Shown: positions 9,129-40,758 of the stretch, one piece after another
How positions within the stretch are numbered: position 1 is the stretch's first letter
Layout: each line of letters starts with the position of its first letter
IMG/VR virus record: IMGVR_UViG_3300045988_076196
Location: 32,242 to 96,241 of that record
From: a virus
Length of the DNA stretch: 64,000 nucleotides
Direction: 5' to 3' (one strand)
Translations under genes and position numbers: made by a program
Notes under the pieces: model-generated
Seen by the model: only the letters and a program-made list of their open reading frames with translations
Database searches by the model: none
What the model was told of the DNA's origin: nothing

Positions 9129-10271
9129 TTATTCATCCTCCTCATTTTCATCACAATCTGCATTTACGAAATGGACATCTACGTTAAAAATTTCTTTCAA
9201 TACATCAATAGCCTCTTTTGGCTCGATGCGGAAAAATTCTCTATCGGGGTTGACCCGCTCTTTGTCAAAATATTTGTGGATATTATTTTCTAGCTCAAAG
9301 CAATCATCGCTAAATACGAAGCAATGAGCATGATATGGCTCTGGCAAGCTGCTAGAGCTGAGTTCGCGAACCCTCAATGCAGGATTCAATCTTCTGGTGC
9401 AACCTAGCTTTACCAATCCGGGCAAACTTGGTGATGTGATTACATATAGCCAACCAGCTTTACTATGTGACTCACGATAAGCAATAGAATCAAGTCGCTT
9501 ATCAATACTAGCTAATTGAGATTTAATCCTATTACGCTCATCATCTGTTAGTGCTTTATCAAAGGCAATATTCATTGCTTTCTTTTCTTCCAACAATTTC
9601 GCGCGTTCTCTAGCAATATCAGCAAGCAACTGCTCCTGTTCTCTTAATCTGCGCTTTTCTTCACGGATTCGCGTCTTTTCTTCTTTTTGCTTAACTTTAA
9701 TAGCCAAGTTAATATCAAGCATATCAAGCCGCGCTTTTACATACTCAGCATTAAGCGCCAATCCGACTTTATTTGCTTTAGACTGATAAGAATTAAATTT
9801 ATTCTTAATCAATTCTTTACTTTTAGCAATATTGCCTGTTGTTACAGATTTTTCTTTACTGTCAATATATCCGGACATTGCGTAGCACAAGCCTCTACCG
9901 TACACGTCCTGCATTTCTTTGCCACGTCTATTTGAACCATTTAGAGTGTATCCTTGCTCTATACGATATAGTCCAGTACTTACGGCAGATTCGATTTTGT
10001 CTTGTAACTGATAACGCCGATGTTCGAGTTCATCCAATGAATCTTGGTAATATGGAATATTATAATCCTGCATTTCTTCAATGGTATGAATTTTGCCATT
10101 TAGAGCATCAAGGACAGATTGAGCTGCTTTTGCAGATCGCATGGTGTTTTCATATTGATACGCCGCAATTTGCCGATGTTCGTCATAGTTATCAATCTCT
10201 GCTTGTATACTAGAAATATCTGCTTTAAGTTGAGCAATCTGTGCTTCAAGCTCTTTCTTTTTCTTGTTCAT
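9129..10271 (-). CDS. DUF4041 coiled-coil plus T5orf172 (GIY-YIG-like) domain protein
   Basis: C-terminal GWLYVITSPSLPGLVKLGCTRR ... REFFRI; ATG 10271 chosen, track start is TTG 10310. Confidence 0.65.
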   Translation of the reverse strand: MNKKKKELEAQIAQLKADISSIQAEIDNYDEHRQIAAYQYENTMRSAKAAQSVLDALNGKIHTIEEMQDYNIPYYQDSLDELEHRRYQLQDKIESAVSTGLYRIEQGYTLNGSNRRGKEMQDVYGRGLCYAMSGYIDSKEKSVTTGNIAKSKELIKNKFNSYQSKANKVGLALNAEYVKARLDMLDINLAIKVKQKEEKTRIREEKRRLREQEQLLADIARERAKLLEEKKAMNIAFDKALTDDERNRIKSQLASIDKRLDSIAYRESHSKAGWLYVITSPSLPGLVKLGCTRRLNPALRVRELSSSSLPEPYHAHCFVFSDDCFELENNIHKYFDKERVNPDREFFRIEPKEAIDVLKEIFNVDVHFVNADCDENEEDE

Positions 10272-10476
10272 TTTGAAAATCTCGAACACGTCTAGCTGTC
10301 TCCTTGTCAAAAATCTTGTCTATATTCTTATCAAAATCTAATGGATTGCTGCTCTTTGCTAAAATCTGCTTGGTGCTGATATTATATAGCTCGAATTGCC
10401 CATTGCCGCAATCATTGATAATCCAGCCAGTATCGTCATATTGGACTACGGCGTTAATTTTCTTTGTTCTTGGCAT
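10246..10476 (-). CDS. hypothetical protein, first gene of the leftward early operon
   Basis: 76-aa ORF; aggtgaaataa-ATG RBS; consensus promoter about 25 nt upstream. Confidence 0.5.
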   Translation of the reverse strand: MPRTKKINAVVQYDDTGWIINDCGNGQFELYNISTKQILAKSSNPLDFDKNIDKIFDKETARRVRDFQNEQEKERA

Positions 10477-10496: not shown

Positions 10497-10525
10497 ATTA
10501 TATCACATCAATTTGCACTTGTCAA
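10497..10525 (-). promoter_or_regulatory. consensus sigmaA promoter, leftward early operon
   Basis: minus strand reads TTGACA-17 nt-(TGa)TATAAT. Confidence 0.65.
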
Positions 10526-10556
10526 GCATAATTTTTGAAAAATTGATTTTTCACAT

Positions 10557-10606
10557 CAATTTAACTATTATCTACGAATGTATATGAGTAGATAATAGTT
10601 AAATTG
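10557..10606. promoter_or_regulatory. perfect 18-19-bp palindrome arms with a 12-bp spacer (operator candidate)
   Basis: (c)aatttaactattatctac 10557-10575 / gtagataatagttaaatt(g) 10588-10606; sits between divergent early promoters. Confidence 0.6.
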
Positions 10607-10682
10607 TAATTATATATTATATACTAGATATTATATCATAGAAAGTATGTAATGTCAATAGAAAAATTTTTTATTTTACCAC

Positions 10683-10711
10683 TTGACAAAGTGATGAATA
10701 TATGGTATAAT
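10683..10711 (+). promoter_or_regulatory. consensus sigmaA promoter P1, rightward
   Basis: TTGACA 10683-10688, 17-nt spacer, TGgTATAAT ending at 10711. Confidence 0.65.
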
Positions 10712-10721
10712 AATATAGTAA

Positions 10722-10783
10722 ATAAGTAAATACGTTAGTATTTACTTATACATTGTTTCTTTCTTTTGCTTCTTTTCTTTCTT
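10722..10783 (+). terminator. 12-bp AT-rich hairpin plus T-rich tract just downstream of P1 (attenuator or short-RNA terminator candidate)
   Basis: ataagtaaatac-gtta-gtatttacttat followed by acattgtttctttcttttgcttcttttctttctt. Confidence 0.4.
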
Positions 10784-10808
10784 AGAGAGTTATATATGAA
10801 AATAATAC

Positions 10809-10837
10809 TTGACATATCTATCATAATATGATATAAT
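10809..10837 (+). promoter_or_regulatory. consensus sigmaA promoter P2, rightward
   Basis: TTGACA 10809-10814, 17-nt spacer, TGaTATAAT ending at 10837. Confidence 0.65.
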
Positions 10838-10866: not shown

Positions 10867-11010
10867 TTGTGGAGCGAAATGAGCTATAACTGGTATGTAT
10901 CGGAAGATACAGAACCAGAAGTATGGGATGATGAATATGAGCCAACTGAGCGCGATTGGTCGCTTTGGATATATGGTAGTTCAGAGAATGATTTAGAGGT
11001 GATTTTTTGA
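10867..11010 (+). CDS. 47-aa acidic, Trp-rich leader ORF
   Basis: aaggaggtggtaagaaa-TTG (or ATG 10879); its stop overlaps the TTG start of the polymerase gene (TTGA). Confidence 0.4.
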   Translation: MWSEMSYNWYVSEDTEPEVWDDEYEPTERDWSLWIYGSSENDLEVIF

Positions 11011-12890
11011 GCCTACAGACGCAAGTTTATTTGCATTCAGTAGATACGTCATGCTTTTATGATGACAACGAAATGACGCTACATAGACGGCTTGTTCGGT
11101 TATATTCTTTGCGTAAGCGATGGAAGGATAGTGATAAACCAGATTGGCGTATCAAGTCTGTAAATCGTTTGCTTAAAAAAGAAAAGGTGCGACTATCTGA
11201 ATTGCTCGATGATGCAGTGAGACGAAATGAAACTAGAAAATTGCGTCAAGATGCTGTGACCGATAAAACGGTTGTTAATCTATTTGAATCTGACTTAACA
11301 CGCAGCTTAGGACTTGACCCGTTCAAGTTGACAGATGAGCTGTTCATCATTAACGTATTTTTCTTTCAGGTATTTAATAATCTAGTTCATCAAGGATTTA
11401 TTTACAATGGTGAAAAATATGTGTTCCTTACAGCATCAGCTGGACAGATAAGAACGAAAAGAGCCGTATTCGTTAAAGAATCGTCGTTTAAGCGCATTGA
11501 GCAAAAATTGATGTGCGGCTTGACCATAGACGAAATCAATGAGCGCGGAGGCATGAATCAGAATAAATTCCTTGCATATTTGGCGCTTATGAACTCTGCC
11601 ACAGATGTTTGGGAAGATTTTGATATTGACAAATCAATCGTAGTAGATGATTGGGAAACGGCTGTTCCGGGATTGGTTGATCATATTGATGGCGTATCGT
11701 ATGAGATTCGGCGCGAAATGACAGAGACGATTATTCCTCATATGGACGGATGCGGTATTATGCTCAATGAAACAACAAGAATGGTGCGTATGCCATGGGT
11801 AAAGGGATTACTTGTTACATTTCCGTTTGATAAGTTTATCAAAGAAAAATGCGGTGGCGAGGCAACAGTAACGGATATTTATGGCAATGAGCATAAAATT
11901 ATAGAGGAAGATATACGGTATATATTCACAAAAAGCCAATTCAAGCTATGGAAATTTTATGATTCGTGGAATTGTTATAAGGCGCGATTCAAAAATTTTG
12001 GATGCAATGCTTGTTATTGCAACATAGAAGAACCGTATATTCCAAAGAGCCGCATCAATTATCAGATGCTTCAAACCTTGAGTGATATGACTGATAATGA
12101 GATTGATCGCATTATTTCTAAGACTGCGCAAGAGATTGACGATGTTGGTAAAGATTATCAAGTTACTATGCGGTTACTTGGCGCAACAGAGAACAATCGT
12201 TATAAATCAGCTATGCAAGAGGCGTTGCTGATTTATCCTGAATTATTCAAAGATTCATATAATCGAGAAATTCTGAAGCAGACTAAAAAGAGCCTAGTTA
12301 AACAAGCCAAAGGTGGGCGGCTTAGAGTAAATGGGAAATATTTATTCTTAGCGCCTGACTTGTATGCGTTTTGTGAATGGCTGTTCCTAGGTGAGCAGAA
12401 TCCACAGGGACTGCTTGCAGATGGTGATGTATATACTAATCAATATCGTGATGGTGATGAATTAGCTTGTTTGCGTTCTCCGCATTTGTATAGGGAATGG
12501 GCAATTCGGACAAATAGGCGTAGCTTAGAGCTTGATTATTGGTTTGGTGGAACTAAGTGTATATATACTAGTTGTCATGATTTAATAACAAGGATAGTTA
12601 TGGCGGACTGCGACGGTGATAAATTATTGGTTGTAAAAGACCGAACATTGACAAATTGTGCGAAAAGGAATATGTCTGATATTTGTACTTTGGCATATGA
12701 TCTCAAAAAGGCGAAGGGAGGTTTGGTAAATTCAGATAGCTTATACGAAGGAATGATTAGAGCATATACCGGTGGCAACATTGGTATTTGGAGTAATCAA
12801 ATAACTAAAATTTGGAATAGCGGGAATATTACTAAGGAAGAATTGGACGTTGTAAAATGGTTGTGTTTTGAGAATAATGCAGTAATTGAT
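11007..12890 (+). CDS. YonO / cellular-RdRP-like single-subunit RNA polymerase, exon 1
   Basis: FLTASAGQIRTKRAVF (about 11424-11471) resembles the RdRP FLxFSxSQLRxxxxWF motif; LRSPHLYREW ... ADCDGD (DCDGD at 12606-12620) matches the DxDGD metal-binding motif; the frame stops at TAA right at the intron start. Confidence 0.6.
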
Positions 12891-13930
12891 TAAATGATAG
12901 TCCACTCATGCGGCAACGCATGATGTGAATGATGGTGAACTCGTAAATGCGAGGTGTGCGGAGAAATCCGTGCTAACGGTAAAACCCTAAACGTATGAAC
13001 GCATGGCAATACCGTGGCAAGATTGTGTGATAAATATTAAGATGAAAGGAGGGACAATATGAGAAAGATTAGTTTGATTGGCAAGAAATTTGGGAGATTG
13101 ACGGTTTTATCTGATGCTGGAACAAAAGGTGGTAGAACATATTCTAACTGTCTATGCGATTGTGGTAAAATGGTGGTAGTTAGTAACAAACATCTAAAAA
13201 GTGGGCATACAAAATCTTGTGGATGTTATAAAAACGAAATTATTGGCGAAATTGGTAAAATAACCGGCAAGACAAATATCAAGTATGCGCAAAAGCAAGC
13301 ACATGAAAATAATAGAAAACATGATATGTCTGGAACAAGATTGTATAGAATTTGGTTACAGATGAAACAGAGATGTCACAACGAGAAGAACGACAGGTAT
13401 CAATATTATGGCGGTAAGGGCGTTTGCGTTTGTGATGAATGGAGAGAAGATTTTCAAGAATTTGAACAATGGTCGAATAACAATGGATATAGAGATGACT
13501 TGACCATTGATAGAATAAATTCTAATAAAAATTATGAACCGTCTAATTGTCGTTGGATATCTCAAAGTGAAAATAGCGCAAGAATACATCGTGATGTGAG
13601 ATACTGGTGTATTGATGTACAAGGCGGAAGATATGCAGAATTTGACAATATTAGAGAATTTTGCAGAAATAATCCTGAGATCGCAAATGAGAATCATGTG
13701 AGATACGCTGTTAGCGGAAAATGTGAAAATCAAGGCGATATTATATTTGGCAAGTTTTAATATTTTATCACACAATAAGCTGTAACGACTAGCCCATTAG
13801 GGCGTAGCTTGTAGGTGAAATTCCTACTCGCAAAGTGCCATCCATCTCTATGAGATGAAGAGATAGTCTACTCCGACTGTTTGAGCAGTGTTAAAGTATC
13901 TCGAAAGAGACGGTATGAAGGTATGCTAAG
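12891..13930 (+). mobile_element. group I intron (td-like, IA2-type) carrying an HNH homing endonuclease; 3' boundary +/-30 nt
   Basis: begins taaatgatag after an exon-terminal U (T4 td begins taattgagg); aaatccgtgctaacgg, taacgactagcccattagggcgtagc and gagatagtctactcc closely resemble T4 td core elements. Confidence 0.7.
13059..13760 (+). CDS. intron-encoded HNH homing endonuclease
   Basis: gaaaggaggg RBS; CxC...HTKSCGC zinc cluster; DRINSNKNYEPSNCRWISQSEN (HNH_3-like); paralog of 63280..63951. Confidence 0.8.
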   Translation: MRKISLIGKKFGRLTVLSDAGTKGGRTYSNCLCDCGKMVVVSNKHLKSGHTKSCGCYKNEIIGEIGKITGKTNIKYAQKQAHENNRKHDMSGTRLYRIWLQMKQRCHNEKNDRYQYYGGKGVCVCDEWREDFQEFEQWSNNNGYRDDLTIDRINSNKNYEPSNCRWISQSENSARIHRDVRYWCIDVQGGRYAEFDNIREFCRNNPEIANENHVRYAVSGKCENQGDIIFGKF

Positions 13931-18162: not shown

Positions 18163-20007
18163 ATGAAGAGTCAAATGGGAGGACTTCGTAGGAAGTTTAT
18201 GTCCAACCACTTAATCACGACCGAGGCATGGTCTGGTAAAAGCAAATCGGAAGAGAAAGAGCAAAACGCAATAGAGTGGCTGACTCTTTTTTAGTTCCGT
18301 AGGAATTGGCACATATATGTAGATATGGTGCTTGGTATTAAGCTAAGGCCATTCCAGATGGTTATGATATATTTAATGGGTATATCTCCATTCTTTTATG
18401 CAATCTGTTCTAGAGGTTTGTCAAAATCATTTATGGCTGGACTTGGAGCAATATGTAAGATGAATCTATATCCGTATAGCGAGATTGTTATTACATCGTC
18501 TACTGTTCAACAGGCTAATAAATTAGCTGATAAAAAGATACGCGATGAAATAATTAAGAAGCTCTCAAGTTATTTGTTATACATGTACGAGCATGAGTAT
18601 ATAGTTATAACAAAGCCGGATGATGGTACAAAGATAGAAAATAAGTTAAATGGCTCAACTATTGTTGTATTGCCGTGTACTGAGGCAAGCCGTGGTGAAC
18701 GTGCAACACTGCTTATTTATGAAGAGGTGCGTTTGCTTAAAAAGACAATTCTTGATGCGGTCTTTGAAAAGATGCCACACCCAAGACAGGCCAAATATAT
18801 GGATAATCCTGTTTATGGGAATAATAAACGATGGATTGAAGAATGCCAGCGTATCTACATTACGTCCGCAAGATATAAATATGAATGGTTTTGGCGTTCT
18901 TTTAAGAATGTGTTCACTCAGCATTTTATAGACAAGCGCGTCAATCATAATGTTTTTGCTGGTGATATATTTATGGCAATAGATAATCGCTTAAAGACGT
19001 GGGCTGATTATCGCAAAGACAAGGCGGAGTCTGAGATGGATTGGAAAATGGAAGACCTCAACCAGATGATAGGCGAGGCTGAGGATGCGTTTTTCACATA
19101 CGAGCAATTTAAGACAGCGCAAATTTTACAGCATTGTTTTAGACCTCTTACATACCTTGATTTCTTCTCTGGTGAACAGGTTGATTTTCCAGAGAAAAAG
19201 GAAGATGAAGTGCGACTCGTTGTGGTTGACTACGCATTTTCCAACACTACTGGTTGTACAAAGAACGACAATACCATTATTACGCTCATGTCGGCGCATT
19301 GGGATAAAAAGAAAAATCGGTTTGAACGTCATATTGATTATATAGAGGGACATGATGCTTCTGACACAATAGGCGCATCTGATAGAGCGAGATACTTATG
19401 GTGGGTATATGATGCGGATTATCTATGTCCCGATGGACGCTCTGGTGGTGAAGTTCTATTCAATCATATGACAGAGCCATTGTCTTGGCCGGAATTAGGA
19501 CTTAGGTGGAATAAGCACGGATTAGGTCTTGCAGATAAATACCAGATGGTTCCACAAGCAAAATTGGATGATTATAGAAGTCGTGTCGTTGACAAAGATG
19601 CAGTTCCAGCTATTATACCCGTGATAGGCACACCAGAGTTGAACTCTACTGGTTGGTTGTCACTGCGTAAACAGCTTGAAACTAACAATATGAAATTCCT
19701 TATTTCTATGCAAGATTATCAGAATGAGCTAACAGATAGTGGTGAATATTATAAATATACTGCTGAAGAATTAGTTAATCAGCTTGAGCCATACGGACAG
19801 ACAGATATGACAATCATAGAGGCAGTTAATCTAAAGACGGTTATTAAGCAAGATAAAATCAAACTAGAAGAACCGCGCACAGGAACTAAGGATAGAATTG
19901 TAACCATTATGTATGGAAATTATATTATTGACTTGATTGAGAACGCATGGCAACAACAGTTACAAGAAGATGAGTTTGATGTTGATTCGATTCAATTAGT
20001 ATATTAG
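18163..20007 (+). CDS. terL: terminase large subunit, with an in-frame TAG at 18292-18294 (uninterrupted ORF is 18325..20007)
   Basis: Walker A-like CSRGLSKS, Walker B LLIYEEV, nuclease VVVDYAFS...DNTIIT; the upstream 43 codons are in the same frame and have a GGTGGTGA RBS, whereas ATG 18325 has no RBS. Confidence 0.75.
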
Positions 20008-20157
20008 TATTTGCCTATGAAGCGGTAGCTATGTTGGTGTGTTGCCGTGGAGGCACTATTAGGGTTGTGTGGAATCCAAGTTCCAACTGAGGCTTAATCA
20101 AAAAAAGTTGAAAATAAAAACACTCAAAAAATATAAAACAAGGAAAGGAGGTTGAAG

Positions 20158-29943: not shown

Positions 29944-30078
29944 ATGAGAAAGTTCCTAGCTGGCGTTGGCGATGCTATTCTCCTTAAGGGTCAGACTATC
30001 ATCGGCTTTGCCAAAACTCTAACAGAATCAACCTTTGGCTTTACTATTTCTAGTGAAGAAATCCGTGGCGGCAAGGGT
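29944..30078 (+). CDS. major tail protein, exon 1 (45 codons)
   Basis: aaggagg RBS; MRKFLAGVGDAILLKGQTIIGF...EEIRGGKG; reading on gives a stop after 6 more codons. Confidence 0.6.
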
Positions 30079-30285: not shown

Positions 30286-30314
30286 TTGACATATTTATAA
30301 CAATGTGATATAAT
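30286..30314 (+). promoter_or_regulatory. consensus sigmaA promoter inside the intron
   Basis: TTGACA-17 nt-(TGa)TATAAT; 25 of 29 positions identical to early promoter P2. Confidence 0.6.
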
Positions 30315-30526
30315 ATACATGGGAAACTTTCAACGAATATCTCCTTGTGGGAGAAGTAGAACCTCAAGCATATGGAGGAAGAAAAATCCGACCCCTATAA
30401 AATAGGGTGAACATATATTCTACTCTCATGTGAAAGCATGAGCAGACTGCTAGTAATAGTAAGTCGATATTGGCGTTGCGAACCAATATGAATACAAAAT
30501 ATTTTATACTAAAAGGAATGTTATGT

Positions 30527-31600
30527 ATGTTGTTATCAAAAGTTGTTAAGTTGAAATGGAACACAAAGAATAGAAAACATTACGAAAGTATTGGATATAT
30601 ATTTACTAAATATGGTGATGAATTTGATGTAAAAGTCGAAGATTTGACACCTTCTAGTAAAGTTGTTGTTGAGGTTGAATGTGACTTTTGTCATAGCGTT
30701 GTTGTGAAAAAGAAATATCAAACATATAATATACAGCATCACGAAAAATATGGGGATTGTTGTGCATCATGCCAATCTAAAAAGAATAAGTTGATATGTA
30801 TGGATAAATATGGCGTTGACAATGGTTCTAAGACAGAATATGCCATTGAAAAAATAAAACAAGTTAGTATGGAGAGATATGGTGTAGATAACCCATCTAA
30901 GATAAGCGATGTAAGACGCAAGTTAAGCGAAATAGCTAAGGCTAATTCAGAAGATGTTATCACTAAGAGAAATCAGACCATGCTAGAAAAATATGGCACG
31001 ACATCACCAATGGACTTAGATATTGTCAAAGAGAAACAACGTGATACTCTATTGAAGAATTATGGCGTTGAGCATCCAAAGCAAAGTGAAGAAATAAAAA
31101 TGAGAGAACGTCAACGGAATATTGAGAAATATGGTGTTGATAATCCTATGAAACTTAAATCCGTAAGAGATAAGATAAAGGCAACGTGTCTTGAAAAATA
31201 TGGCGTTGAATGCTCATTAAGCTCACCAGATGTTAGAGCTAAAATTAACAAAACATTACTTGAAAATGGTAATGTAAAAACATCTAAACAACAACTTCAA
31301 CTACAACAACTATTAAAAGAAATATATGGAGATTGTGACTTAAACAAGCCGTGTGGTTCATGCTTTCTTGATTGTGTAATTGAATATAATGGTGTCAATA
31401 TAGATATTGAATATGATGGTGAATATTGGCATCAAGATACACAACAAGATAGGCGTAGAGACGAATTTGTCAAATCACAAGGATATAAAATTCTGCGCAT
31501 TCGTGGAAGATATGACATTCCAAATAAAGAACAACTTGTGAAACATATTGAAGAATTGGTAAATTCACAACATACATTCGATATAATTAAAATGGTATAA
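30527..31600 (+). CDS. homing endonuclease: six KYG-type repeats plus a C-terminal Vsr-like PD-(D/E)XK nuclease (I-Bth0305I-like architecture)
   Basis: repeats (E/D)KYGV(D/E)NP..K about every 23 aa; C-terminal DIEYDGEYWH...RDEFVKSQGYKILRI; track start 30470 has no RBS. Confidence 0.7.
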   Translation: MLLSKVVKLKWNTKNRKHYESIGYIFTKYGDEFDVKVEDLTPSSKVVVEVECDFCHSVVVKKKYQTYNIQHHEKYGDCCASCQSKKNKLICMDKYGVDNGSKTEYAIEKIKQVSMERYGVDNPSKISDVRRKLSEIAKANSEDVITKRNQTMLEKYGTTSPMDLDIVKEKQRDTLLKNYGVEHPKQSEEIKMRERQRNIEKYGVDNPMKLKSVRDKIKATCLEKYGVECSLSSPDVRAKINKTLLENGNVKTSKQQLQLQQLLKEIYGDCDLNKPCGSCFLDCVIEYNGVNIDIEYDGEYWHQDTQQDRRRDEFVKSQGYKILRIRGRYDIPNKEQLVKHIEELVNSQHTFDIIKMV

Positions 31601-31613
31601 AATATAATTAGGT

Positions 31614-32549
31614 AATGCACTAATCGGTAAATATTATCATGATTCTGGTCTAACTGTTCAGATTACTGACTCTTGCTTCAAGCTAGAGTATATTGCGGCC
31701 AATCTTGGTGTTGATCTACAGAAGGGCGGTCTTGGTGTTTATCAGGGCGAACTGGTTGTTCAGACTGCTGGTAAGGTCACTCTACCACAGGCTCCAACCG
31801 CCGTTGCTGGTTCACTAATTGGTTGGTATCGCACTCCTAGCGAGAAGGATTATACTGTTGGTACAATTACTGAGGCGTCCGGTGTATACACAATGGAAAT
31901 TGCCAATGCTAAGGTTGGCGAGAAGTATTGTGTTATGTATTTCTATCAGAATGCTAATGCTGATAGCATTATCATTCCAGTTGACTATGTACCAGACGAG
32001 CTTCACGTCATTATTATCAATGACCTGTTCAATGCGGATATTTCCACTACGAACAATGCAACTAAGGTTGGCCGTCTAATTACTGATATTCCTAGACTAC
32101 AGCTTGATGGCGCACAAGACCTTAATCTTACTGCAACTTCCGCAGCTACTGTTTCTCTGTCTGGCTCTGCTCTAGCAGTTGACTCCACTGACTCTTGCGA
32201 GAATGAGTCTTACTATGGTACTATGACCGAGGAAGTCTTTGGCGCAAAGTGGCAGAACGAAGTAAAGGCTATTGCATTTGAGGATGCTGATATTAGCCTA
32301 AAGGCAGCTGGTAGCCAGACTCTAGTTTGCTATGTTCTATTTGACGGCAACAAGGCTCCTAAAATTGTTGACAATGCCAATTTTACATTTGCTGTCGAGG
32401 ACGGAACTGAGAATGTGTCTGTCAATGAAAGTGGCGTTGTGAATGCAATCAAGGCTGGTACAGCACATATTTCCGCAACTCTAAAGGGTGCTGACCCAGA
32501 GGTCAACCCAAGTGTTGTTGGTTATGCTGAGGTCACTGTAACCGCTTAA
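31614..32549 (+). CDS. major tail protein, exon 2 (C-terminal Ig-like Big_2 domain)
   Basis: NALIGKYYHDSGLTVQ... continues from exon 1; C-terminal VNAIKAGTAHISATLKG...GYAEVTVTA. Confidence 0.6.
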   Translation, partial: NALIGKYYHDSGLTVQITDSCFKLEYIAANLGVDLQKGGLGVYQGELVVQTAGKVTLPQAPTAVAGSLIGWYRTPSEKDYTVGTITEASGVYTMEIANAKVGEKYCVMYFYQNANADSIIIPVDYVPDELHVIIINDLFNADISTTNNATKVGRLITDIPRLQLDGAQDLNLTATSAATVSLSGSALAVDSTDSCENESYYGTMTEEVFGAKWQNEVKAIAFEDADISLKAAGSQTLVCYVLFDGNKAPKIVDNANFTFAVEDGTENVSVNESGVVNAIKAGTAHISATLKGADPEVNPSVVGYAEVTVTA

Positions 32550-33347: not shown

Positions 33348-33879
33348 AGTTGAATTGCGTCGAATGCTGAAAGACCCCTTGCAAAAAGCTGTACAATATG
33401 TCGTTCAAAAGATATGGAATGAAAATCGCGAAGTAGTACGACTTGTTGTCTACGAGGTCTATCAGCCAACAGAATATGATAGAACTATGGGTTTTCTTAA
33501 TGCGTGGGACTTTACAGGCGAATATTACAATCCACCAAGCATGAACTCTGTAGCACATGGTGAATTTTATTTCAAGCCCAGTGAAATGCCACTTGGCAGC
33601 ACAGACCCAGAATCAGGAAATTATGCGCAACATATTGGTATTGCTGGAAGTTATAAGGGCGCAGATGCTCGTGAGTATCTGGCTGATATTATTTACGGTA
33701 ATATAAAGTGGGGTTCTGGTTTTGGCATTGGAGATTGGCAAAGAAAGCGTGACGCATGGACTGAGTTAAATAAGCGCATAGGCAGACGCAAGATGAAACA
33801 ATGGATGAAAGAAGGCATGGAGGCGGCTGGGCTTACTGTACAGATGCACAATACGCCGCTTCATGTCGAGGAAAGTTAA
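33328..33879 (+). CDS. hypothetical protein
   Basis: 183-aa ORF with its own ATG, overlapping the upstream gene by 20 nt. Confidence 0.5.
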   Translation: MPTARSEVELRRMLKDPLQKAVQYVVQKIWNENREVVRLVVYEVYQPTEYDRTMGFLNAWDFTGEYYNPPSMNSVAHGEFYFKPSEMPLGSTDPESGNYAQHIGIAGSYKGADAREYLADIIYGNIKWGSGFGIGDWQRKRDAWTELNKRIGRRKMKQWMKEGMEAAGLTVQMHNTPLHVEES

Positions 33880-33880
33880 T

Positions 33881-34396
33881 ATGGTTATATGTGGACTTGA
33901 TGCAAGCACCTCTTGCACTGGATGGTCTATATTTGATAATGGTGAACTCATTGCATATGGCGCAATCAAGCCCAAGGGTGATGATTGGCACGATAGGGTA
34001 ATGGGGCTTACTATGGAATTATCAAAAATATTTAGACAGTATCAACCCACCATTATCTATGCAGAGGAAGTGCCATTAAAAAAAGGCGCATCTACTATAG
34101 AAAAATTGGGCGCAGTGCAAGGCGTGATTTTAGCATTATGCGCTGGCTTCAAGATAAAGCCATGCTTCTTGATGCCAAGTAAATGGCGTGGCGACCTTAA
34201 TCTCTTTGATGGCACAAGAGCCGGATTACAAAGAGATGTTCTGAAGAAAAAAGCCATAGAGATGGCGAATGAAGAATTTGGCCTCGAATTGGCATGGGTT
34301 GCCCCAAGTAGCAAAAAGAATGAGGATGATTGCGCGGAAGGAATCCTCATAGCCTACTCACAAATTAAGAAAAAAGGGAGTGTGATGAATGGCTAA
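33881..34396 (+). CDS. RuvC-like Holliday junction resolvase
   Basis: ICGLDASTSCTGWSIF, IIYAEEVP and DDCAEGILIA correspond to the RuvC catalytic acidic motifs. Confidence 0.75.
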   Translation: MVICGLDASTSCTGWSIFDNGELIAYGAIKPKGDDWHDRVMGLTMELSKIFRQYQPTIIYAEEVPLKKGASTIEKLGAVQGVILALCAGFKIKPCFLMPSKWRGDLNLFDGTRAGLQRDVLKKKAIEMANEEFGLELAWVAPSSKKNEDDCAEGILIAYSQIKKKGSVMNG

Positions 34397-34766
34397 AAGT
34401 TCAAATTACTCGATACTCGTTGATGCTGAGTTAGACTTAAAACAAATCACACAAAAACTTAATTCACAGAAATATAAAATAGATGTAGAAGCTAATATGA
34501 CTGGTGATGCGGCAGACAAACTAAGAAATACAAATTCTGCCACTCGGTCATTAGAGGAATCTACAGTGGATCTTACTCTTACATATCAGCAATTTAGACA
34601 AGTACTTGATTCTGTTATTGATGTAACGAGTAAAATGTATGAGCAAGTCAAGGCGTTAGACACAGCACAAACGGAGTTTAAGAAAGTCTCGGACTTGTCT
34701 GGTCAAGCACTTGATGATTATACAGATAAACTTGCTCAGATGGGCAAGACAGTTGGCCGCACCGGT
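34389..34766 (+). CDS. tape measure protein, exon 1 (126 codons)
   Basis: typical TMP N-terminus ...LDTAQTEFKKVSDLSGQALDDYTDKLAQMGKTVGRTG; reading on gives 15 unrelated codons and a stop. Confidence 0.65.
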
Positions 34767-35104
34767 AAACCAAATCGGTCTGAGCCGGTATGTACAAATG
34801 GTAAATGTGCATAGAGAACAGCCCCTAAACCCTTGAAAGCCTCAAGAGCCTTATCACTACAACATGAGGATGAGATAAGCCTGAGTGTGATTATTAACAA
34901 TGAATCAGCGCGAAAGCAGAAAGACGATAAGGATGATTCCATGGTTGAAAAACCTAAAGAATCTGTCTTAAATAATGTATGATATTTGAGACAAAAGGGC
35001 AGATTGGGCGCGAAGCCGTGATGAGCGGTGTGTCAATCGAATATACAGGGCGACCCTCCAATTATATAGGGTGAAGAAATATTCAGGAAGGGATTAAAAA
35101 CCCC

Positions 35105-35133
35105 TTGACAAATTATCTAATATGTGCTATTGT
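35105..35133 (+). promoter_or_regulatory. sigmaA-type promoter inside the insert
   Basis: TTGACA-17 nt-(TGc)TATTGT, 27 nt upstream of the ATG at 35160. Confidence 0.45.
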
Positions 35134-35159
35134 ATAGATACTTAAAGGAGGTATCTATT

Positions 35160-35384
35160 ATGTTCTTATCTATCGTATTTGCAATTTTTGTTTGGCCTGC
35201 CATTGCCATTGCTGGGTTGATTGCATTAGGTAAAGAAATTGGGAGATTGTTTCATAACTCAAGCGATTCAACCAAGCCGACCACTATACAGTCACAACGT
35301 AATATTCATTATGAAACACCTAAAGAAGAAGAGCGACGTACTAATTATTGGGGCATGGATGATGAAAGGTGGGGCAAATTGTAA
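35160..35384 (+). CDS. 74-aa single-pass membrane protein
   Basis: aaaggagg RBS; MFLSIVFAIFVWPAIAIAGLIALG followed by a hydrophilic tail. Confidence 0.5.
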   Translation: MFLSIVFAIFVWPAIAIAGLIALGKEIGRLFHNSSDSTKPTTIQSQRNIHYETPKEEERRTNYWGMDDERWGKL

Positions 35385-35464
35385 TGAATAATCTAGCTAC
35401 AGTGTTCATCATTGGATGGTTCGTTTACATCATCTTATTTACAATTAGTTGTGTGAGGAAGTAA
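35384..35464 (+). CDS. 26-aa hydrophobic peptide
   Basis: TAATG overlap with the upstream stop; MNNLATVFIIGWFVYIILFTISCVRK. Confidence 0.35.
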   Translation: MNNLATVFIIGWFVYIILFTISCVRK

Positions 35465-35466
35465 TT

Positions 35467-35583
35467 ATGGAAGATGTATATATTGTAGCAATCATCGCAA
35501 CGGTAATCGTATTTGCCATCCTTATTTATCTTTGTTCCATGAGTGGCTATACAACAAAGCGCAAAATCCAGATGATTATATAG
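35467..35583 (+). CDS. 38-aa hydrophobic peptide with a basic tail
   Basis: GAGGAAG RBS; MEDVYIVAIIATVIVFAILIYLCSMSGYTTKRKIQMII. Confidence 0.4.
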   Translation: MEDVYIVAIIATVIVFAILIYLCSMSGYTTKRKIQMII

Positions 35584-35679
35584 ATATTAATAGAAAGAAA
35601 CGAGATAAGGATATAGCACAGGTCAAAGCCCAAGAAAAGTATGACAATGATTGGGGATATATTAGATAATTTATAACCG

Positions 35680-38600
35680 TCAGAGATGGTTGAAGCCGCA
35701 ACGGAATTTCGCAAGAATAGTTTTAATGATTCTGATTCGGCAACGCTAGCAAAAGTAGCGACAATGTTTACTAATGTAGCAGATGAATCTATGTCTGCTG
35801 CTGATAGCGCATCGTTTATTATAGCTCAGATGAAGGCATTCAATATAGAGGCTGATGATGCTTATAGGATCATCGATTCTGTGAATGCTGTGTCAAATAA
35901 TTATGCCGTTTCATCTGGGCAATTAGCACAAAATCTAGGTAATATGTCTGCTGCAATGGCAACAGGCAATAATACATTTGAACAGTCTCTTGGTATGCTC
36001 ACGGCTATGACTGAAATCACGAGGAATGCACCCAAGGGTTCAAGAGCGCTTATTACTGTACAGGGACGTCTGAATCAGGTTGTAGACGAATCCTCAGATA
36101 CGGGTAAGGCGTTAACAGCATGGTATCAAGAACACGCCATCGCTATTAAAGATGATGAAGGTCAAGTTCGTAGTCTATATGAAGTATTGACTGATGTAGC
36201 AAAGATTTGGCCTAAATTAACCAAGAATGAGCAGATGTACTATCTGCAACAGCAAGCAGGAACCACACAAACACAGAATCTTGCTGCTCTTCTAAAAAAT
36301 TATCAAACAGCTATTGATGCAACCAATACAGCGCTAGAATCCAATGGTTCTGCCATGAAAGAAAATGAAGCCTACATGGAATCAATTTCTGCGAAGGAAC
36401 AGGCTCTTGCAGCTGAATTTGAGGATTTTGCAAATCGTGTTTTATCTAAAGAGTTGGTTGGTGGATTCTTGGATGCTGGTAAAGCTATGCTTGATTTTGC
36501 CAACAATGATGTTGGTGCGGCCATTACTAGGATCACTGGATTCTCTACTACTATTGCAAGCTTAGTTGGTATTGCAGGTACGGTTATTGGAAAACTAAGT
36601 GAGATGAGAACATTGTTCTCAGCGACAAATGCAGCTGGCGGATTAGCGTCTATTTTAACCTCACCAAAGACATTACTTATTATTGCAGGAGTAGCAGCAG
36701 CTATTGCTGGAATAGTTGAAGTTGTACAAGCGTTAAATCAGGCAGCAGAAAATAGGAAATTTGAAAATCTTGTAAAGAATTTTGAAGAACTTGATAAACA
36801 AGCCAAAGACGCTGCTGATAAGCTTGAAGACGTCAAAAAGCGACTTGATGAGTTAAATGATACTCCTGCAAAAGATAGAGGTCAAGATTGGCAGAATGAA
36901 ATAGACAAACTTGAGACATTAAAGCAATATTATGAATATATTGAACAAATGCTTCAAAAACAAGCTGCCGCTGCTCAAGAAGCTGCTTATAACGCTCCTC
37001 GTACTGTTGGTGTATCTGTTGATAAGAAAGTTGTTGAAACAGACGAGTATAGTAATAATTTTCAAACATATATAAAAGAAATCGGTCAATATAAGACTGA
37101 ACAGGAAGCTGTATATGCTCTTGCTGCTCAAGAGAGTATATCTTTTACAAATGAGCAAACAGAGGCGCTATCAAAGTTGTATGATGAGACAGAGATAGCC
37201 GCACAGGGTTATGCTTATTTGAAACAAAACCTAGAAGATATTGGCTATACGTTCTCCAACAACATTCAGACTGCTTCTGAATATGCATTATCTCAAGGCT
37301 CTGCTATGAAGGGTTTGGCCGTACAGATTGAAGAAACTAAAAAATATAGCACAGAGCTTACACAGGCACAACAAGAGCAATACGATGCTTACATAAAGAA
37401 TAATCAAGGACAGTATGAGTATCTGTCAGGTCTTCATAATTTAACAACTGAGCAACAAGCGTTCGTTGATGGATATAAAGCCATGGTTGATGCCATGGGT
37501 GATTATTCAGTTAATGTCGAAAATGTAGCTAATGAAGTTGAAAATATATCTAATTCGTTTGCGTATTATAATGAAATTGTAACGAACTATCAGGATGCAA
37601 TGAATGGTGTAACCGGAGCTTCTGAAGCATTCGTTCAATCTCTGTTTGACCAAAATGGACAATTAACTACAACAGCTCAAACGGCGCTAACCACAGACAG
37701 TGCGATGGCGAGTTACGCTACTTCTATCATACAGGCGCAACAAGCACAGTCTCAGGCTAACTTTAATAATCTTATTCAGCAGATTGCATCAGTTGGACAA
37801 CAGGCCACAATAACTTCCGAACAAATTGCTAATATGATGGTGATGGCTGGTGTTCAAATTGGTGCTGGTGGTAGCGCTGAGCTTTCTAGGAATCTACAAC
37901 GTACATACGAAGCTAAAACTGGCAAGAAAGTATCGCAGGACAAAGCTGCGTACAAACAATGGTTACAAGATACCGCCTACCAAATCGGTCAAAATCAATG
38001 GAAACGTCAGCAAGAGGAATATGCGAAACAGCTTGAAGCCATAAAAGATTATGTCCCAGCAGAAAAAGCCGCCGAAGAAGCAGAAAAGCAAGCTAAGAAA
38101 GCCCAAAAAGCGCAAGAAAAGGCGGCTAATGAATCTCAGTCGGCATATGAATCAGCCGCAAAATCAGCAGAGCAAGCCGCGCAAGAAGCAGCTCGTGCCG
38201 CTGAACAAGCCGCAAAATCAGCAGAGCAAGACGCGCAAGAAGCAGCTCGTGCCGCTGAACAAGCCGCTGAGGAAGCCAAGCAGAAAATTCTTGATTCTAT
38301 CCAAGAACTAAAAGACGCATCTGATGATTTCTGGGATAGCAAAACAGACGCTGTTGAAGAAACCAACAAAGAGCTAGACCGCCAAAAGCAACTTGAAGAA
38401 AAGCTCAAAGCGCTAGAAGAAGCCAAACAAAAGAAAATCCTACTCTATAAGAACGGCCAGTTCCAATATGACAAGGATTATGGGACGATTGCTAAAGCTC
38501 AAGCTGATTATGAAGAAACCCGCGACAAGATTCAGCGCGAACGTGAGCTAGAGCAGCTTCAAGAGATGAAGGATAACGCCACTAAGATATTCAATGAAAT

Positions 38601-40758
38601 GAAGGATATTGTTCAGAATGGCGGCAATGTCACTCAAGAGATGATTAACAGTTGGCTTTCTCAGATGCAAGCCGATGGGGCTGATTATTATGATAGCAAC
38701 AAGAAAATGCTTGGTGAATGGCTGGATTGGGCTAAGGGTGCTATCAATGAAATTAGCAACCAAGTAGCATCTGCTACTGGAGGTAGCGGAGGCGCTAGTG
38801 GTGGTTATGGTTCCGGTAGTGGCAGTGTTTCTGGACAATGGAGTCATCAAGACGAAACAAATCCATATGTTGCTTTTGGACAAGATACAATCCAAGAGAT
38901 GCTTGAATGGATAAAAAAGATAGATAAATATCAAGACGATGAAGAGTTTATGAATGAGATAATACGAAGAGCTGCTAGTGCTGGATATATTATTCCATCT
39001 AATGCAGGACTTCGTGGCAATCTAAAAATGAATCTTCTTGAAGCTCTTCAAAAAATTCTAGCGCCATATCAAAATCTAATTGAAACTAACACATCCAGCC
39101 CGTATGTTTATGCATGGAAGGGTTTATTTAAGGGTGAACTTCAGAGAGGTACTGACCTAGGTAGCAACACTGTATTTGCAGGATATCAGAACAAACTTTT
39201 GTCTGGCGCTATCGATGACCCATATGAAGAGCAGGAATATTATCAACGCAATCAAGCCATAAAAGCTCTATACAATGAATACAAGAAAATAACAGACCAG
39301 CTTGGCTATATTCCAGATTATCTGAAAGATTTTATGGATATGGGGTCACAAATGCTCAACAATGTTGACCTTGTTGCTAGAAAAATGGCTGATAATTACG
39401 ATAATTTGTCTGCTAGTGGTAAAAGCCTGTTGGATTCTCTCATATCTGGCGAAGAGGACTATGAGGCGGCTAATAAGATGCGCATTGCATATCTAGCCGA
39501 GAATTATAGTCCAGAGCGTCTTAGATATATGAATCTAGTCCGGGTGGCTGGTTCTTCCAGAAATGCAATGCAGTTGATGAATCAACGCACAGAGGAAGAT
39601 AAAGCCCGTGATGAGGCACTGTATGGCGATTGGCTAAATGAGCTACGAGATAAGATAGACAAAGCTGGCGGTGTTGTAACAGATGAGATTTACAAGTGGT
39701 ATCTAAAAACAGCTGGTGGAGCATTAGGTGCTTATGGAACTGGCGACGCTCAGCTATATACAGATGTGTTTGCTGGTGGCGGCAAATATTTATATCGTGA
39801 TCAAGAAGAGCTAGAGAGGCTTGGTTATCATGGATTCTTAGGTAATTTTGGCAACATCAGCGAAGGCGGGTTGTCTGATGTAACTAAGAATCTTGTTAAG
39901 AGCAAAATCCTAACGTCTACCACAGAAACAAACATTGATAAGCAAAAAGAGCAGATAACTCAGAATAATATCAAAGGCATTAAAGATACTCTTGAGAAAT
40001 ATCAAGAGGGATATGGCGCAACTCAACACTGGATTGATGATGCAACCAAATACATCACTGATACTCTGAATAAAAACAACGAGGCGTTGTTGACAGCTGA
40101 TGCAGAAACAAGAAAATCTTTACTTGCTCAAAATGAAGAGCTTGTGGGTATTCGTGATTCTCTTAGTGGTGTTGAGGCTGATGAAGATATTAACAAATTA
40201 CCCGGCTCAACAACTGCTTACAATGATTGGGAGTTCAAGATTGATAACCCAACAGATGAAGAACTTGCGGCAAAAGCAGAACAACGTGCGCAAAAGTTGG
40301 CAGAACAAATGGCGGCAAATTCAGAGGCATGGTGGAACGCTAGTTCTAAAGCAGAGCAAGACGCTTTACACAAAGCAAACGAGGAGCTTGCTAAGAAAAT
40401 CAATGATTTGACTGGTAGTAATTTGACATATGAGGGGTCGACTGGCACATGGTCAAAGAACGCCTCTGGTACTCATAATTTCCGTGGTGGTCTATCCTTA
40501 GTTGGTGAGCGTGGCCCAGAGCTTAGAGTTCTTGGGCAAGGTGATAGTATCATTCCAGCTTATCAAACGGCAAACCTATGGAAATGGAGCGGTACAACAC
40601 CTGAGAGTATGCTCAAAACGCTTGAATTGAGAAAAGGCGATGGGCGAAATTCTTACGTATTCAATGTGTCTAAGCTCGAATTACCAAATGTTAACAATGC
40701 AAAGGAATTTGTGGCTGGACTAAAGAATTATGCGCTACAGTATAGTTATAAACGTTAA
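35680..40758 (+). CDS. tape measure protein, exon 2 (about 1692 codons)
   Basis: very long alpha-helical / coiled-coil ORF; EAATEFRKNSF... and C-terminal GGLSLVGERGPELRVLGQGDSIIPA are typical of tape measure proteins. Confidence 0.85.
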   Translation, partial: SEMVEAATEFRKNSFNDSDSATLAKVATMFTNVADESMSAADSASFIIAQMKAFNIEADDAYRIIDSVNAVSNNYAVSSGQLAQNLGNMSAAMATGNNTFEQSLGMLTAMTEITRNAPKGSRALITVQGRLNQVVDESSDTGKALTAWYQEHAIAIKDDEGQVRSLYEVLTDVAKIWPKLTKNEQMYYLQQQAGTTQTQNLAALLKNYQTAIDATNTALESNGSAMKENEAYMESISAKEQALAAEFEDFANRVLSKELVGGFLDAGKAMLDFANNDVGAAITRITGFSTTIASLVGIAGTVIGKLSEMRTLFSATNAAGGLASILTSPKTLLIIAGVAAAIAGIVEVVQALNQAAENRKFENLVKNFEELDKQAKDAADKLEDVKKRLDELNDTPAKDRGQDWQNEIDKLETLKQYYEYIEQMLQKQAAAAQEAAYNAPRTVGVSVDKKVVETDEYSNNFQTYIKEIGQYKTEQEAVYALAAQESISFTNEQTEALSKLYDETEIAAQGYAYLKQNLEDIGYTFSNNIQTASEYALSQGSAMKGLAVQIEETKKYSTELTQAQQEQYDAYIKNNQGQYEYLSGLHNLTTEQQAFVDGYKAMVDAMGDYSVNVENVANEVENISNSFAYYNEIVTNYQDAMNGVTGASEAFVQSLFDQNGQLTTTAQTALTTDSAMASYATSIIQAQQAQSQANFNNLIQQIASVGQQATITSEQIANMMVMAGVQIGAGGSAELSRNLQRTYEAKTGKKVSQDKAAYKQWLQDTAYQIGQNQWKRQQEEYAKQLEAIKDYVPAEKAAEEAEKQAKKAQKAQEKAANESQSAYESAAKSAEQAAQEAARAAEQAAKSAEQDAQEAARAAEQAAEEAKQKILDSIQELKDASDDFWDSKTDAVEETNKELDRQKQLEEKLKALEEAKQKKILLYKNGQFQYDKDYGTIAKAQADYEETRDKIQRERELEQLQEMKDNATKIFNEMKDIVQNGGNVTQEMINSWLSQMQADGADYYDSNKKMLGEWLDWAKGAINEISNQVASATGGSGGASGGYGSGSGSVSGQWSHQDETNPYVAFGQDTIQEMLEWIKKIDKYQDDEEFMNEIIRRAASAGYIIPSNAGLRGNLKMNLLEALQKILAPYQNLIETNTSSPYVYAWKGLFKGELQRGTDLGSNTVFAGYQNKLLSGAIDDPYEEQEYYQRNQAIKALYNEYKKITDQLGYIPDYLKDFMDMGSQMLNNVDLVARKMADNYDNLSASGKSLLDSLISGEEDYEAANKMRIAYLAENYSPERLRYMNLVRVAGSSRNAMQLMNQRTEEDKARDEALYGDWLNELRDKIDKAGGVVTDEIYKWYLKTAGGALGAYGTGDAQLYTDVFAGGGKYLYRDQEELERLGYHGFLGNFGNISEGGLSDVTKNLVKSKILTSTTETNIDKQKEQITQNNIKGIKDTLEKYQEGYGATQHWIDDATKYITDTLNKNNEALLTADAETRKSLLAQNEELVGIRDSLSGVEADEDINKLPGSTTAYNDWEFKIDNPTDEELAAKAEQRAQKLAEQMAANSEAWWNASSKAEQDALHKANEELAKKINDLTGSNLTYEGSTGTWSKNASGTHNFRGGLSLVGERGPELRVLGQGDSIIPAYQTANLWKWSGTTPESMLKTLELRKGDGRNSYVFNVSKLELPNVNNAKEFVAGLKNYALQYSYKR
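38155..38262 (+). repeat. 54-bp tandem duplication (2 copies, 1 mismatch) within the tape measure gene
   Basis: gccgcaaaatcagcagagcaag(c/a)cgcgcaagaagcagctcgtgccgctgaacaa at 38155 and 38209. Confidence 0.9.

Follow-up and report, generated by a model that had tools for sequence, protein, structure and literature searches.

The stretch of DNA considered here comprises 64,000 nucleotides (nt) of the virus record IMGVR_UViG_3300045988_076196 (positions 32,242 to 96,241 of that record); the whole stretch is further called the window, and all coordinates are counted within it. Its tape measure gene is interrupted by an insertion with the features of a group I intron, and downstream of the catalytic core of this insertion a promoter-like sequence is followed by a Shine-Dalgarno (SD) sequence and three tightly coupled small open reading frames (ORFs) for hydrophobic products of 74, 26, and 38 amino acids (aa). 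An initial annotation, made from the letters alone, had described such an operon inside a tape measure intron. Here the intron, the promoter, the ORFs, and the RNA structures that surround them are characterized by comparison with homologous loci (L numbers) and proteins (four-digit P numbers), and the coordinates are collected in Table 1.

Table 1. Features of the tape measure intron, its cassette, and related sites in the window.
Feature	Position	Strand	Remarks
Tape measure exon 1	34389-34766	+	Ends ...GRTG; last base T34766 is the U of the P1 U.G pair
Group I intron, 913 nt	34767-35679	+	Exon-1 frame stops at TAG 34812-34814, within P2
Tape measure exon 2	35680-40758	+	First bases TCAGA pair with intron TCTGA (P10)
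Predicted spliced exon junction			GGCCGCACCGGT / TCAGAGATGG; also written ...GGCCGCACCGGT / TCAGAGATGGTTGAAGCC
Ribozyme core	34767-35106	+	Helices assigned by hand from the alignment
Internal guide sequence	34779-34789	+	P10 strand TCTGA and P1 strand GCCGGT
P2	34790-34812	+	
P3	34821-34824 / 35048-35051	+	GCCC/GGGC
P4	34830-34834 / 34995-34999	+	
P5	34849-34855 / 34926-34932	+	With GAAA-capped extensions
P6	35003-35037	+	
P7	35039-35044 / 35079-35084	+	
P8	35053-35072	+	
P9 hairpin	35088-35106	+	The -35 overlaps its 3' strand by two bases
Sigma-A-type extended -10 promoter	35105-35133	+	-35 TTGACA 35105-35110, 17-nt spacer, TG 35125-35126, c, -10 TATTGT 35128-35133
Long-range helix, 5' strand (P9.1-like)	35110-35125	+	Coincides with the promoter spacer
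SD hairpin ATAGATACTT-AAAGG-AGGTATCTAT	35134-35158	+	First base of the 5' arm directly follows the -10
Ribosome binding site AAAGGAGG	Ends 8 nt before ATG 35161	+	
ORF1, A-type, 74 aa	35161-35384	+	N-terminal transmembrane helix, charged tail ending ...DDERWGKL
ORF2, C-type, transmembrane-only peptide, 26 aa	35384-35464	+	Overlaps ORF1 in TAATG
ORF3, B-type gene cut to 38 aa by a 1-nt deletion	35467-35583	+	Starts 2 nt after the ORF2 stop; GAGGAAG 5 nt upstream
Frameshift site, A4 run	35563-35566	+	A5 in relatives (L054 alignment: one extra A)
Out-of-frame B-type remainder, NPDDYIDINRKKRDKDIAQVKAQEKYDNDWGYIR and stop	35565-35669	+	tblastn 79% identity to L005, there in frame with ORF3
Long-range helix, 3' strand	35657-35672	+	Made up of the final codons of the last ORF and its stop
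Intron 3' end ATAACCG	35673-35679	+	CC pairs with GG of J7/9 (2-bp P9.0); G35679 is omega-G
Seven TTGACA-N14-TGnTAnnnT sites	Four at 10.5-10.8 kb, one at 30.3 kb, one at 62.4 kb, one in the tape measure intron		

The placement of the ORFs inside a tape measure intron, claimed by the initial annotation, is borne out by several independent features of the insertion: the U.G pair of P1, P10, the terminal omega-G, a covarying P2-P9 core that includes the P3-P4-P5-P6-P7-P3'-P8-P7' arrangement with the P3/P7 pseudoknot typical of group I introns, and the gap-free restoration of the reading frame. P1 is formed by exon ACCGGU with intron GCCGGU (34784-34789), its splice-site U.G pair being invariant in 16/16 aligned introns, and P10 by intron UCUGA (34779-34783) with exon-2 UCAGA (35680-35684), for which L001 has a G.U variant; J3/4 is UAAA. 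Over these 16 introns the P1-P10 fold of 82 pairs is paired in 98.8% of cells, and compensatory change was observed in 15 pairs, located in P2, P3, P5, P5 extensions, P6, P7, P8, and P9, against 7.1±1.2 in shuffled alignments (0/500 reached 15) and 0-2 in slid controls. The fold was derived by hand from the same 16 sequences, which inflates the paired percentage and not the compensatory counts.

At the protein level exon 2 alone gives a Pfam PhageMin_Tail match that begins only at profile position 20, whereas the conceptually spliced protein matches PF10145 without a break from profile position 2 to 198. The spliced protein also aligns without gaps with uninterrupted homologs (GRTG/SEMVEAATEF versus KTG/TEMIDAATAF in L006 and YTG/KEMIQSATLF in L007, the slash marking the junction). 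These observations support the restoration of an intact tape measure gene by excision, the self-splicing itself being predicted in silico. Three other descriptions of the insertion, namely, a group II intron, an intein, and a moron between two genes, were considered and rejected in view of the P1, P10, and omega-G features, of stop codons in all frames, and of a single Pfam domain being split by the insertion.

Relatives were reached via the tape measure protein and the 26-mer at the intron's 5' end; a scan of IMG/VR with back-translated ORF1 gave nothing, and megablast and blastn searches of GenBank phages gave nothing useful. With the first 26 nt of the intron as probe 33 viral and 48 metagenome loci were obtained. 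In total 56 unique complete homologous introns of 590-1104 nt were collected, all at the same site, including four of L027 type, while the 1723-nt intron of L003/L038 lies outside this set. Among the IMG/VR relatives the insertion is absent in L006, L007, and L011-L015, and the other relatives have a homologous insertion at the identical site. The spliced junction had 28 matches in IMG/VR, none with tape measure homology, so that no intron-less allele with an identical junction was found there.

The sequence TTGACA-17-TGcTATTGT, proposed by the initial annotation as a promoter, is present upstream of ORF1, with a 17-nt spacer that ends in TGC, and in a simple promoter scan it was among the best sites of the region (10/12 matches, plus TG). 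The motif TTGACA-N14-TGnTAnnnT occurs at seven sites in the window versus 0.07 expected from shuffled sequences, 0/100 of which reached seven, that is, an enrichment of approximately 100-fold; the 30.3-kb member of this class lies upstream of a homing-endonuclease ORF. All homologous introns of the set (56/56) retain TTGACA and TAnnnT at a distance of exactly 17 nt and have a transmembrane (TM) ORF downstream, the seven variants of the -10 (TATTGT, TATAGT, TATGTT, TATGGT, TATGAT, TATTAT, and TAGTAT) all conforming to TAnnnT. In L027 the P9 hairpin and the spacer differ in sequence with hexamers and spacing unchanged, and the same is valid for L003. Between the -35 and the start codon not one of 55 nt is substituted in comparison with L054 and L052, while the core, ORF1, ORF2, and ORF3/4 diverge by 9-24%. 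As far as these alignments can be read, the promoter is conserved as a promoter, and the RNA helix formed by its spacer (described below) accounts for part of the conservation without explaining the hexamers.

The suggestion of the initial annotation that host RNA polymerase would express the cassette independently of the late tail operon is the natural reading of a promoter class which is shared with the divergent region at 10.5-10.8 kb and with the homing-endonuclease gene at 30.3 kb. No terminator was found 3' of the cassette. On the minus strand of the cassette only promoter-like sites with 9/12 matches are present, and no conserved antisense promoter was recognized, the conservation of these sites across homologs being judged by eye only; the total of promoter-like sites in the region, 17 versus a shuffled mean of 10.5±2.7, is a modest excess. 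As a separate observation, four perfect TTGACA-N14-TGnTATAAT promoters, two per strand, lie within approximately 340 nt at 10497-10837 and are flanked by divergent ORFs at 9129-10310 (-) and 11007-12893 (+); this is probably an early control region of the phage.

The ribosome binding site, the TAATG overlap of the first two ORFs, and the third ORF 2 nt past the second stop codon with its own GAGGAAG were all found as initially annotated, and so was the one TM helix ascribed to each product, since every ORF has one 19-residue segment with a mean Kyte-Doolittle value of 2.4-3.0. Each of the three lacks lysine and arginine before the hydrophobic 19-mer and has them after it, which by the positive-inside rule suggests that the N-terminus is outside and the C-terminus inside. 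ORF1 is identical to public protein P0001 and has relatives at 85-91% and 55-57% identity, and looser homologs (36-50% identity) with length and architecture kept are found in other introns. For the window versus L052/L054 the ratio of nonsynonymous to synonymous differences per site (pN/pS) of ORF1 is 0.13-0.27 in frame versus approximately 2 with stop codons in the other frames. In ORF2 13 synonymous versus 5 nonsynonymous differences (pN/pS 0.10) are also frame-specific, and TM-only peptides of this type, 25-28 aa long, recur in L004, L052, L054, and L057/L059. Overall the in-frame pN/pS is 0.05-0.27 versus about 1-5.6 with stops in the other two frames, and the indels between L001 and L002 are in frame. 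According to the initial annotation, ORFs that were not conserved in homologous introns and had the substitution pattern of non-coding DNA would speak against the operon; what was found is frame-specific purifying selection and homologs in other introns. Judged by these patterns the ORFs are genes, although ORF2 and ORF3 are not called by gene callers in public assemblies.

The third ORF requires a separate description because its product is a shortened one. In L005, L047, L054, L052, and many other loci an intact 67-aa B-type form (MED/NVY...CSMSGYTTKRKNPDDY...IAQVKAQEKYDNDWGYIR) is encoded, in which the frame of ORF3 continues into what is the -1 frame of the window. The remainder that lies out of frame in the window has 10 synonymous and 3 nonsynonymous differences from L054, and the repaired ORF3 protein has a pN/pS of 0.10 against the same locus. 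A search with the repaired protein resulted in 869 clusters at 90% identity, almost all of 67 aa among the matches listed. The identical A4 allele is present in L049, L050, and L051, three independent assemblies from three samples, and it is therefore a real allele and not a sequencing error. Consequently the basic tail TTKRKIQMII of the 38-aa peptide, which the initial annotation had compared with the tails of small toxins and holins, is a frameshift product (A4 versus A5) and not a designed tail.

Programmed frameshifting at this A-run was considered and rejected: inspection showed no slippery site of the form X XXY YYZ, a slip by -1 from AAA onto CAA mispairs, and one by +1 leads to a stop; a run of four A's seems too short for transcriptional slippage. 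Among the B-type proteins P0146 is a second truncated form of independent origin, and together with P0137 and P0143 it is one of several public entries with a frameshift in the TTK(R)K / A-run region. This may reflect a mutational hot spot or a tolerance of TM-only forms.

The composition of the cassette varies considerably among the 56 introns, each of which has 1-4 small TM ORFs and keeps at least one ORF with an SD. A-type ORFs stand alone in 18 unique introns; 17 others have a single non-A ORF ending in W-G (B-type included), to which the 4 introns of L027 type are added. The multi-ORF cassettes are A+B, A+C, A+C+B (the window and L054), and A+C+A'+B (L052), and in L025/L035 A and B are accompanied by a two-TM B-like protein. 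Nearly all the proteins follow a common plan with an N-terminal TM helix, a charged tail, predicted to be cytoplasmic and about 40 residues long in most of them, and a C-terminal (D/E)-x-x-x-W-G-x-(I/L) motif. The third position of the glycine codon of this motif varies and ORFs internal to the cassettes keep the motif, which indicates that the constraint acts at the protein level. In a profile-profile comparison of the A and B families only the 9-residue C-terminal stretch matches (E 0.057), so that their common ancestry is not shown.

No ORF of at least 150 aa occurs in any of the 56 analysed introns (0/56), and no nuclease domain was detected in the ORFs of the tape measure intron of the window by Pfam, PHROGs, and other family scans. 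In L003/L038 a B-like TM ORF and then a 264-aa ORF lie downstream of the same promoter type, the 264-aa ORF having weak, sub-threshold PD-(D/E)XK-like matches (DUF2726/DUF559). This related intron with a TM ORF and an endonuclease-like ORF, together with the promoter class that the 30.3-kb insertion shares in the presence of a homing endonuclease, suggests the ancestry from which the present intron may have been derived.

The cassette is enclosed by a long-range helix in which 35110-35125 and 35657-35672 form 14 perfect pairs and two more, with a predicted duplex energy of -13 to -21 kcal/mol in 22 introns. In the alignment 89% of cells are paired versus 33-49% in slid controls, and 7 double-change cells are found versus 2.0±1.1 in shuffles; the variants include ATCTA/TAGAT changed to ATTTA/TAAAT, TTCAA/TTGAA, and TTAAGA/TCTTAA, and in L027 the sequence is entirely different. 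In the folding model the -10, the SD, and all ORFs make up the 530-nt terminal loop of this P9.1-like helix, and only 7 nt (ATAACCG) are left to the splice site. The same bases are thus in triple use, as promoter spacer, ribozyme helix, and coding sequence, and this tight overlap is new. In some introns part of the -10 can pair near the intron 3' end.

Immediately downstream of the -10 the SD is held in a predicted hairpin of -8.6 kcal/mol (z -4 to -5), which falls to -0.7 kcal/mol when the RNA starts 7 nt after the -10. Its stem is kept in L033, L001, and L057 with loops of 9-16 nt.

Taken together, it is probable that the locus is a group I intron cargo module in the tape measure gene of a human-gut phage of approximately 96 kb, with the anatomy described above and with the following expression logic. 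The cargo would consist of a sigma-A-type promoter, a strong SD, a 74-aa A-type protein, a 26-aa TM-only peptide, and a B-type protein, normally of 67 and here of 38 aa. On the late pre-mRNA of the tape measure gene, formation of the long-range helix would draw the 3' splice site towards the core and the SD would be masked by the hairpin after the -10, so that, by analogy with td/I-TevI of phage T4, the ORFs would be poorly translated and the intron would splice. The internal promoter would also be used by host RNA polymerase, with a start that falls within the 5' arm of the hairpin and presumably near 35139-35142; the RNA initiated there, being free of the ribozyme, the long-range helix, and the hairpin, would have an open SD. 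In this way the peptides would be made independently of the tail operon and probably early in infection. The proteins are expected to insert in the cytoplasmic membrane with the N-terminus out and the C-terminus in, where the exposed charged tail with its acidic-W-G-x-(I/L) end would presumably dock on a host or phage partner. They might act at the membrane as moron-like accessory factors to the advantage of the phage, for instance, in taking over the host or in excluding competing phages, and cargo of this kind would explain the fixation of a mostly endonuclease-less intron in a phage clade.

Several observations weigh against this explanation or limit it. Transcription start, timing, and splicing are deduced from the sequence. 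Rfam, including Intron_gpI, had no match at the gathering threshold or at E<=10 in a scan of 34600-35850, where its model may be insensitive to the tape measure intron. The spacer of the promoter is a helix strand, and part of the promoter conservation could accordingly stem from an RNA role. In the divergent introns L018, L027, and L004 the SD hairpin is weak or missing, and within the main clade it is near-invariant with little covariation of its own. GTDB genomes scanned for the intron gave no match that would point to a host or to a prophage state. On the protein side, Pfam, PHROGs, NCBIfam, and PADLOC searches with all cassette proteins yielded nothing significant, only sub-threshold noise (DUF3139, PspB), and the AlphaFold model of ORF1, two helices with a predicted local distance difference test score (pLDDT) of 64, is too poor for a fold search. 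The B family is narrow, as a search of 1.84 billion representatives with its profile yielded no more than 11 clusters at 50% identity, all of them close relatives or frameshift variants. The cassette proteins thus appear to be lineage-restricted, and their function can only be surmised.

For this function an early membrane-anchored accessory activity with a cytoplasmic partner, in host takeover or in competition and exclusion, is tentatively favoured as one possibility, on account of the promoter class, the topology with the conserved tail motif, and the fixation of an intron mostly without endonuclease. A more specific proposal, which we regard as doubtful, treats the widespread endonuclease-less intron as a mutualist or weapon whose mini membrane proteins, expressed early by the host from the intron's own promoter, act at the membrane against competing phages or take over a host membrane process; interference with tape-measure-mediated DNA entry by intron-less relatives is a possible route. 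As part of the same doubtful proposal, selection on the cargo and not homing would keep the intron fixed, with intron RNA and expression signals having co-evolved towards the triple use of bases described above. The initial annotation had compared the peptides with type I toxins, holin/antiholin, and superinfection-exclusion peptides; this likeness received no family-level support from Pfam, PHROGs, NCBIfam, or PADLOC, and the tail of about 40 residues with the acidic-W-G motif is unlike the cited toxins. Superinfection-exclusion proteins are not a class that any sequence family defines. Nevertheless, membrane-damaging toxins serving as an intron addiction module or in lysis timing would be in agreement with the small single-TM peptides having K/R just after the helix, and with the persistence of TM-only versions (ORF2, under strong purifying selection, the truncated ORF3, and the independently truncated P0146). 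Such a role is judged unlikely because no toxin, holin, or defence family is matched, neither a conserved antisense promoter nor a terminator accompanies the cassette (minus-strand sites of 9/12; 17 versus 10.5±2.7), and the charged tail with the W-G motif points to partner binding and not to pore formation. Moreover, the cassette is located inside the tape measure intron and not beside an endolysin, and neither in its neighbourhood nor among the ORFs scanned was a lysis gene recognized.

The remaining explanations concern the sequence signals themselves. That the promoter-like sequence is conserved as RNA structure only, and that the ORFs are translated, if at all, from pre-mRNA or excised intron, is suggested by the two-base overlap of the -35 with P9, by the spacer being a strand of a covarying helix, and by the pairing of part of the -10 near the 3' end in some introns. 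It is nevertheless decidedly improbable, because TTGACA, 17 nt, and TAnnnT are retained in 56/56 introns including L027, and also in L003, despite other P9 and spacer sequences, because the -10 varies at non-critical positions only, and because the motif, enriched about 100-fold, recurs between divergently oriented ORFs and upstream of a gene for a homing endonuclease. The idea that the TM proteins assist intron mobility, for instance, as partners of the L003 endonuclease, could refer to L003/L038, where a B-like TM ORF precedes the weakly endonuclease-like 264-aa ORF in the same intron and under the same promoter; this endonuclease-like ORF is confined to L003/L038, whereas all 56 introns keep the cassette in the absence of an ORF of at least 150 aa, and no homing mechanism is known to require a membrane protein, which makes the idea very improbable. 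Least credible of all are decaying remnants or chance ORFs of AT-rich intron DNA without product: despite the frameshift of ORF3 in the window and the gene callers' omission of ORF2 and ORF3, they are already contradicted by the substitution patterns, with frame-specific purifying selection in ORF1, ORF2, and the B family, by length and architecture conserved at 36-50% identity, by hundreds of full-length B-type clusters, and by the retention of at least one ORF with an SD in every intron.

Some further observations were made on introns and neighbouring genes. A second intron-like insertion interrupts a gene that starts at 29944 (MRKFLAGV...RGGKG) near 30075 (AAGGGT / AAAAATTGCCCT, with P1-like pairing); it has a promoter TTGACA-17-TGaTATAAT at 30286-30314, a stretch at 30389-30420 that shares 79% identity with the region of P8/P7' in the tape measure intron, and at 30470-31600 an ORF for a homing endonuclease of 376 aa (phrog_12131, E 3e-38). 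The interrupted frame resumes near 31612-31627 and runs to 32549. The boundaries of this insertion (approximately 30.1-31.6 kb) are approximate, since reading-frame logic alone did not fix the splice sites. In L004, L007, L008, L003, and L054 further tape measure insertions are located downstream, exon-2 tblastn matches being in two or three pieces, and in L054 a 269-aa ORF stands between the pieces, while exon 2 of the window is uninterrupted; the tape measure gene appears to be an intron hot spot. In L056 1-967 (Logan ERR11638675) a divergent B-type ORF, P0142, with an intron 3' end (TAATTTGATTTAACTG / TCAGAG) directly abuts an NfeD gene that is rich in GC and looks bacterial; either the assembly is chimeric or the 3' part of the intron has inserted ectopically. 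A RuvC-like Holliday junction resolvase gene (33863-34396, +) lies inside the structural module; it immediately precedes the tape measure gene, with whose start it overlaps. A drum RNA (RF02958; 20012-20128, +; 49.7 bits, gathering score 43) is placed between a 560-aa ORF ending at 20007 and the portal gene starting at 20152.

As for the significance of these data, a whole intron family, 56 unique copies at one tape measure site of human-gut phages, carries non-endonuclease cargo under purifying selection. If the proteins serve the phage, the intron would offer a clear example of retention for the sake of cargo and a new source of early phage micro-proteins missed by gene callers. The triple use of bases together with the SD hairpin provides a compact, testable model of how translation of intron cargo and splicing may be kept apart in bacteria. 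In addition, a gap in Rfam is exposed, as a canonical P1-P10 intron is left undetected. Within the literature accessible to us we found no report on this family of tape measure introns or on phage group I introns that carry membrane proteins as cargo.

Group I introns of phages are textbook selfish elements, whose cargo, if any, is a homing endonuclease. In T4, transcripts from the promoter inside the intron lack the hairpin of the ribosome binding site, and in the sunY intron the ORF lies 3' of the catalytic core with the 3' splice site remote from it. The tape measure intron, by prediction self-splicing like td/I-TevI and nrdD(sunY)/I-TevII of T4, resembles these in being a group I intron of a phage gene with an ORF in a peripheral loop and an internal promoter of its own. 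It also resembles the T4 introns in the hairpin that holds the ribosome binding site and in the overlap of the ORF end with intron helices: in the td intron the ribosome binding site of I-TevI is sequestered by a hairpin, the overlap is known as "core creep", and ribosomes that enter the intron cause a splicing defect (PMC3073962). The differences lie in the cargo, a homing endonuclease in T4 and one to four tiny membrane proteins here, and in the promoter, which is middle or late in T4 and a host sigma-A extended -10 here; only here is the promoter spacer a strand of the loop-closing helix and the ribozyme unrecognized by Rfam.

Other known systems share part of these properties. Morons, known in general from lambdoid phages, are likewise small accessory genes with a host-type promoter of their own inside the late structural region and are expressed independently, whereas the present cassette is nested in an intron and not between genes, has no terminator, and is fixed in a clade and not sporadic. 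Type I toxins of the Fst/TxpA/BsrG class, holins, exclusion proteins (T4 Imm, Sie2009, and Ltp), and SPO1 gp56 are similar in size, single TM helix, and positive residues after it, and the membrane roles of these small phage and prophage proteins during infection would fit the cassette; there is, however, no sequence or family relationship to them, most members of the cassette have a long charged tail with the acidic-W-G motif, and, in comparison with type I toxins and holins, neither an antisense RNA partner nor an endolysin neighbour was found at the cassette. The rps3 gene in introns of fungal mitochondrial rRNA is another useful gene carried by a group I intron in place of a homing endonuclease, but that case is organellar, with translation from the host transcript and a housekeeping gene, in contrast to a phage intron with an internal bacterial promoter and novel mini-proteins. 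According to this comparison, what is known is the kind of element, a group I intron whose ORF module is expressed independently, and what is new is the array of micro membrane proteins and the tight overlap of promoter, helix, and coding sequence.

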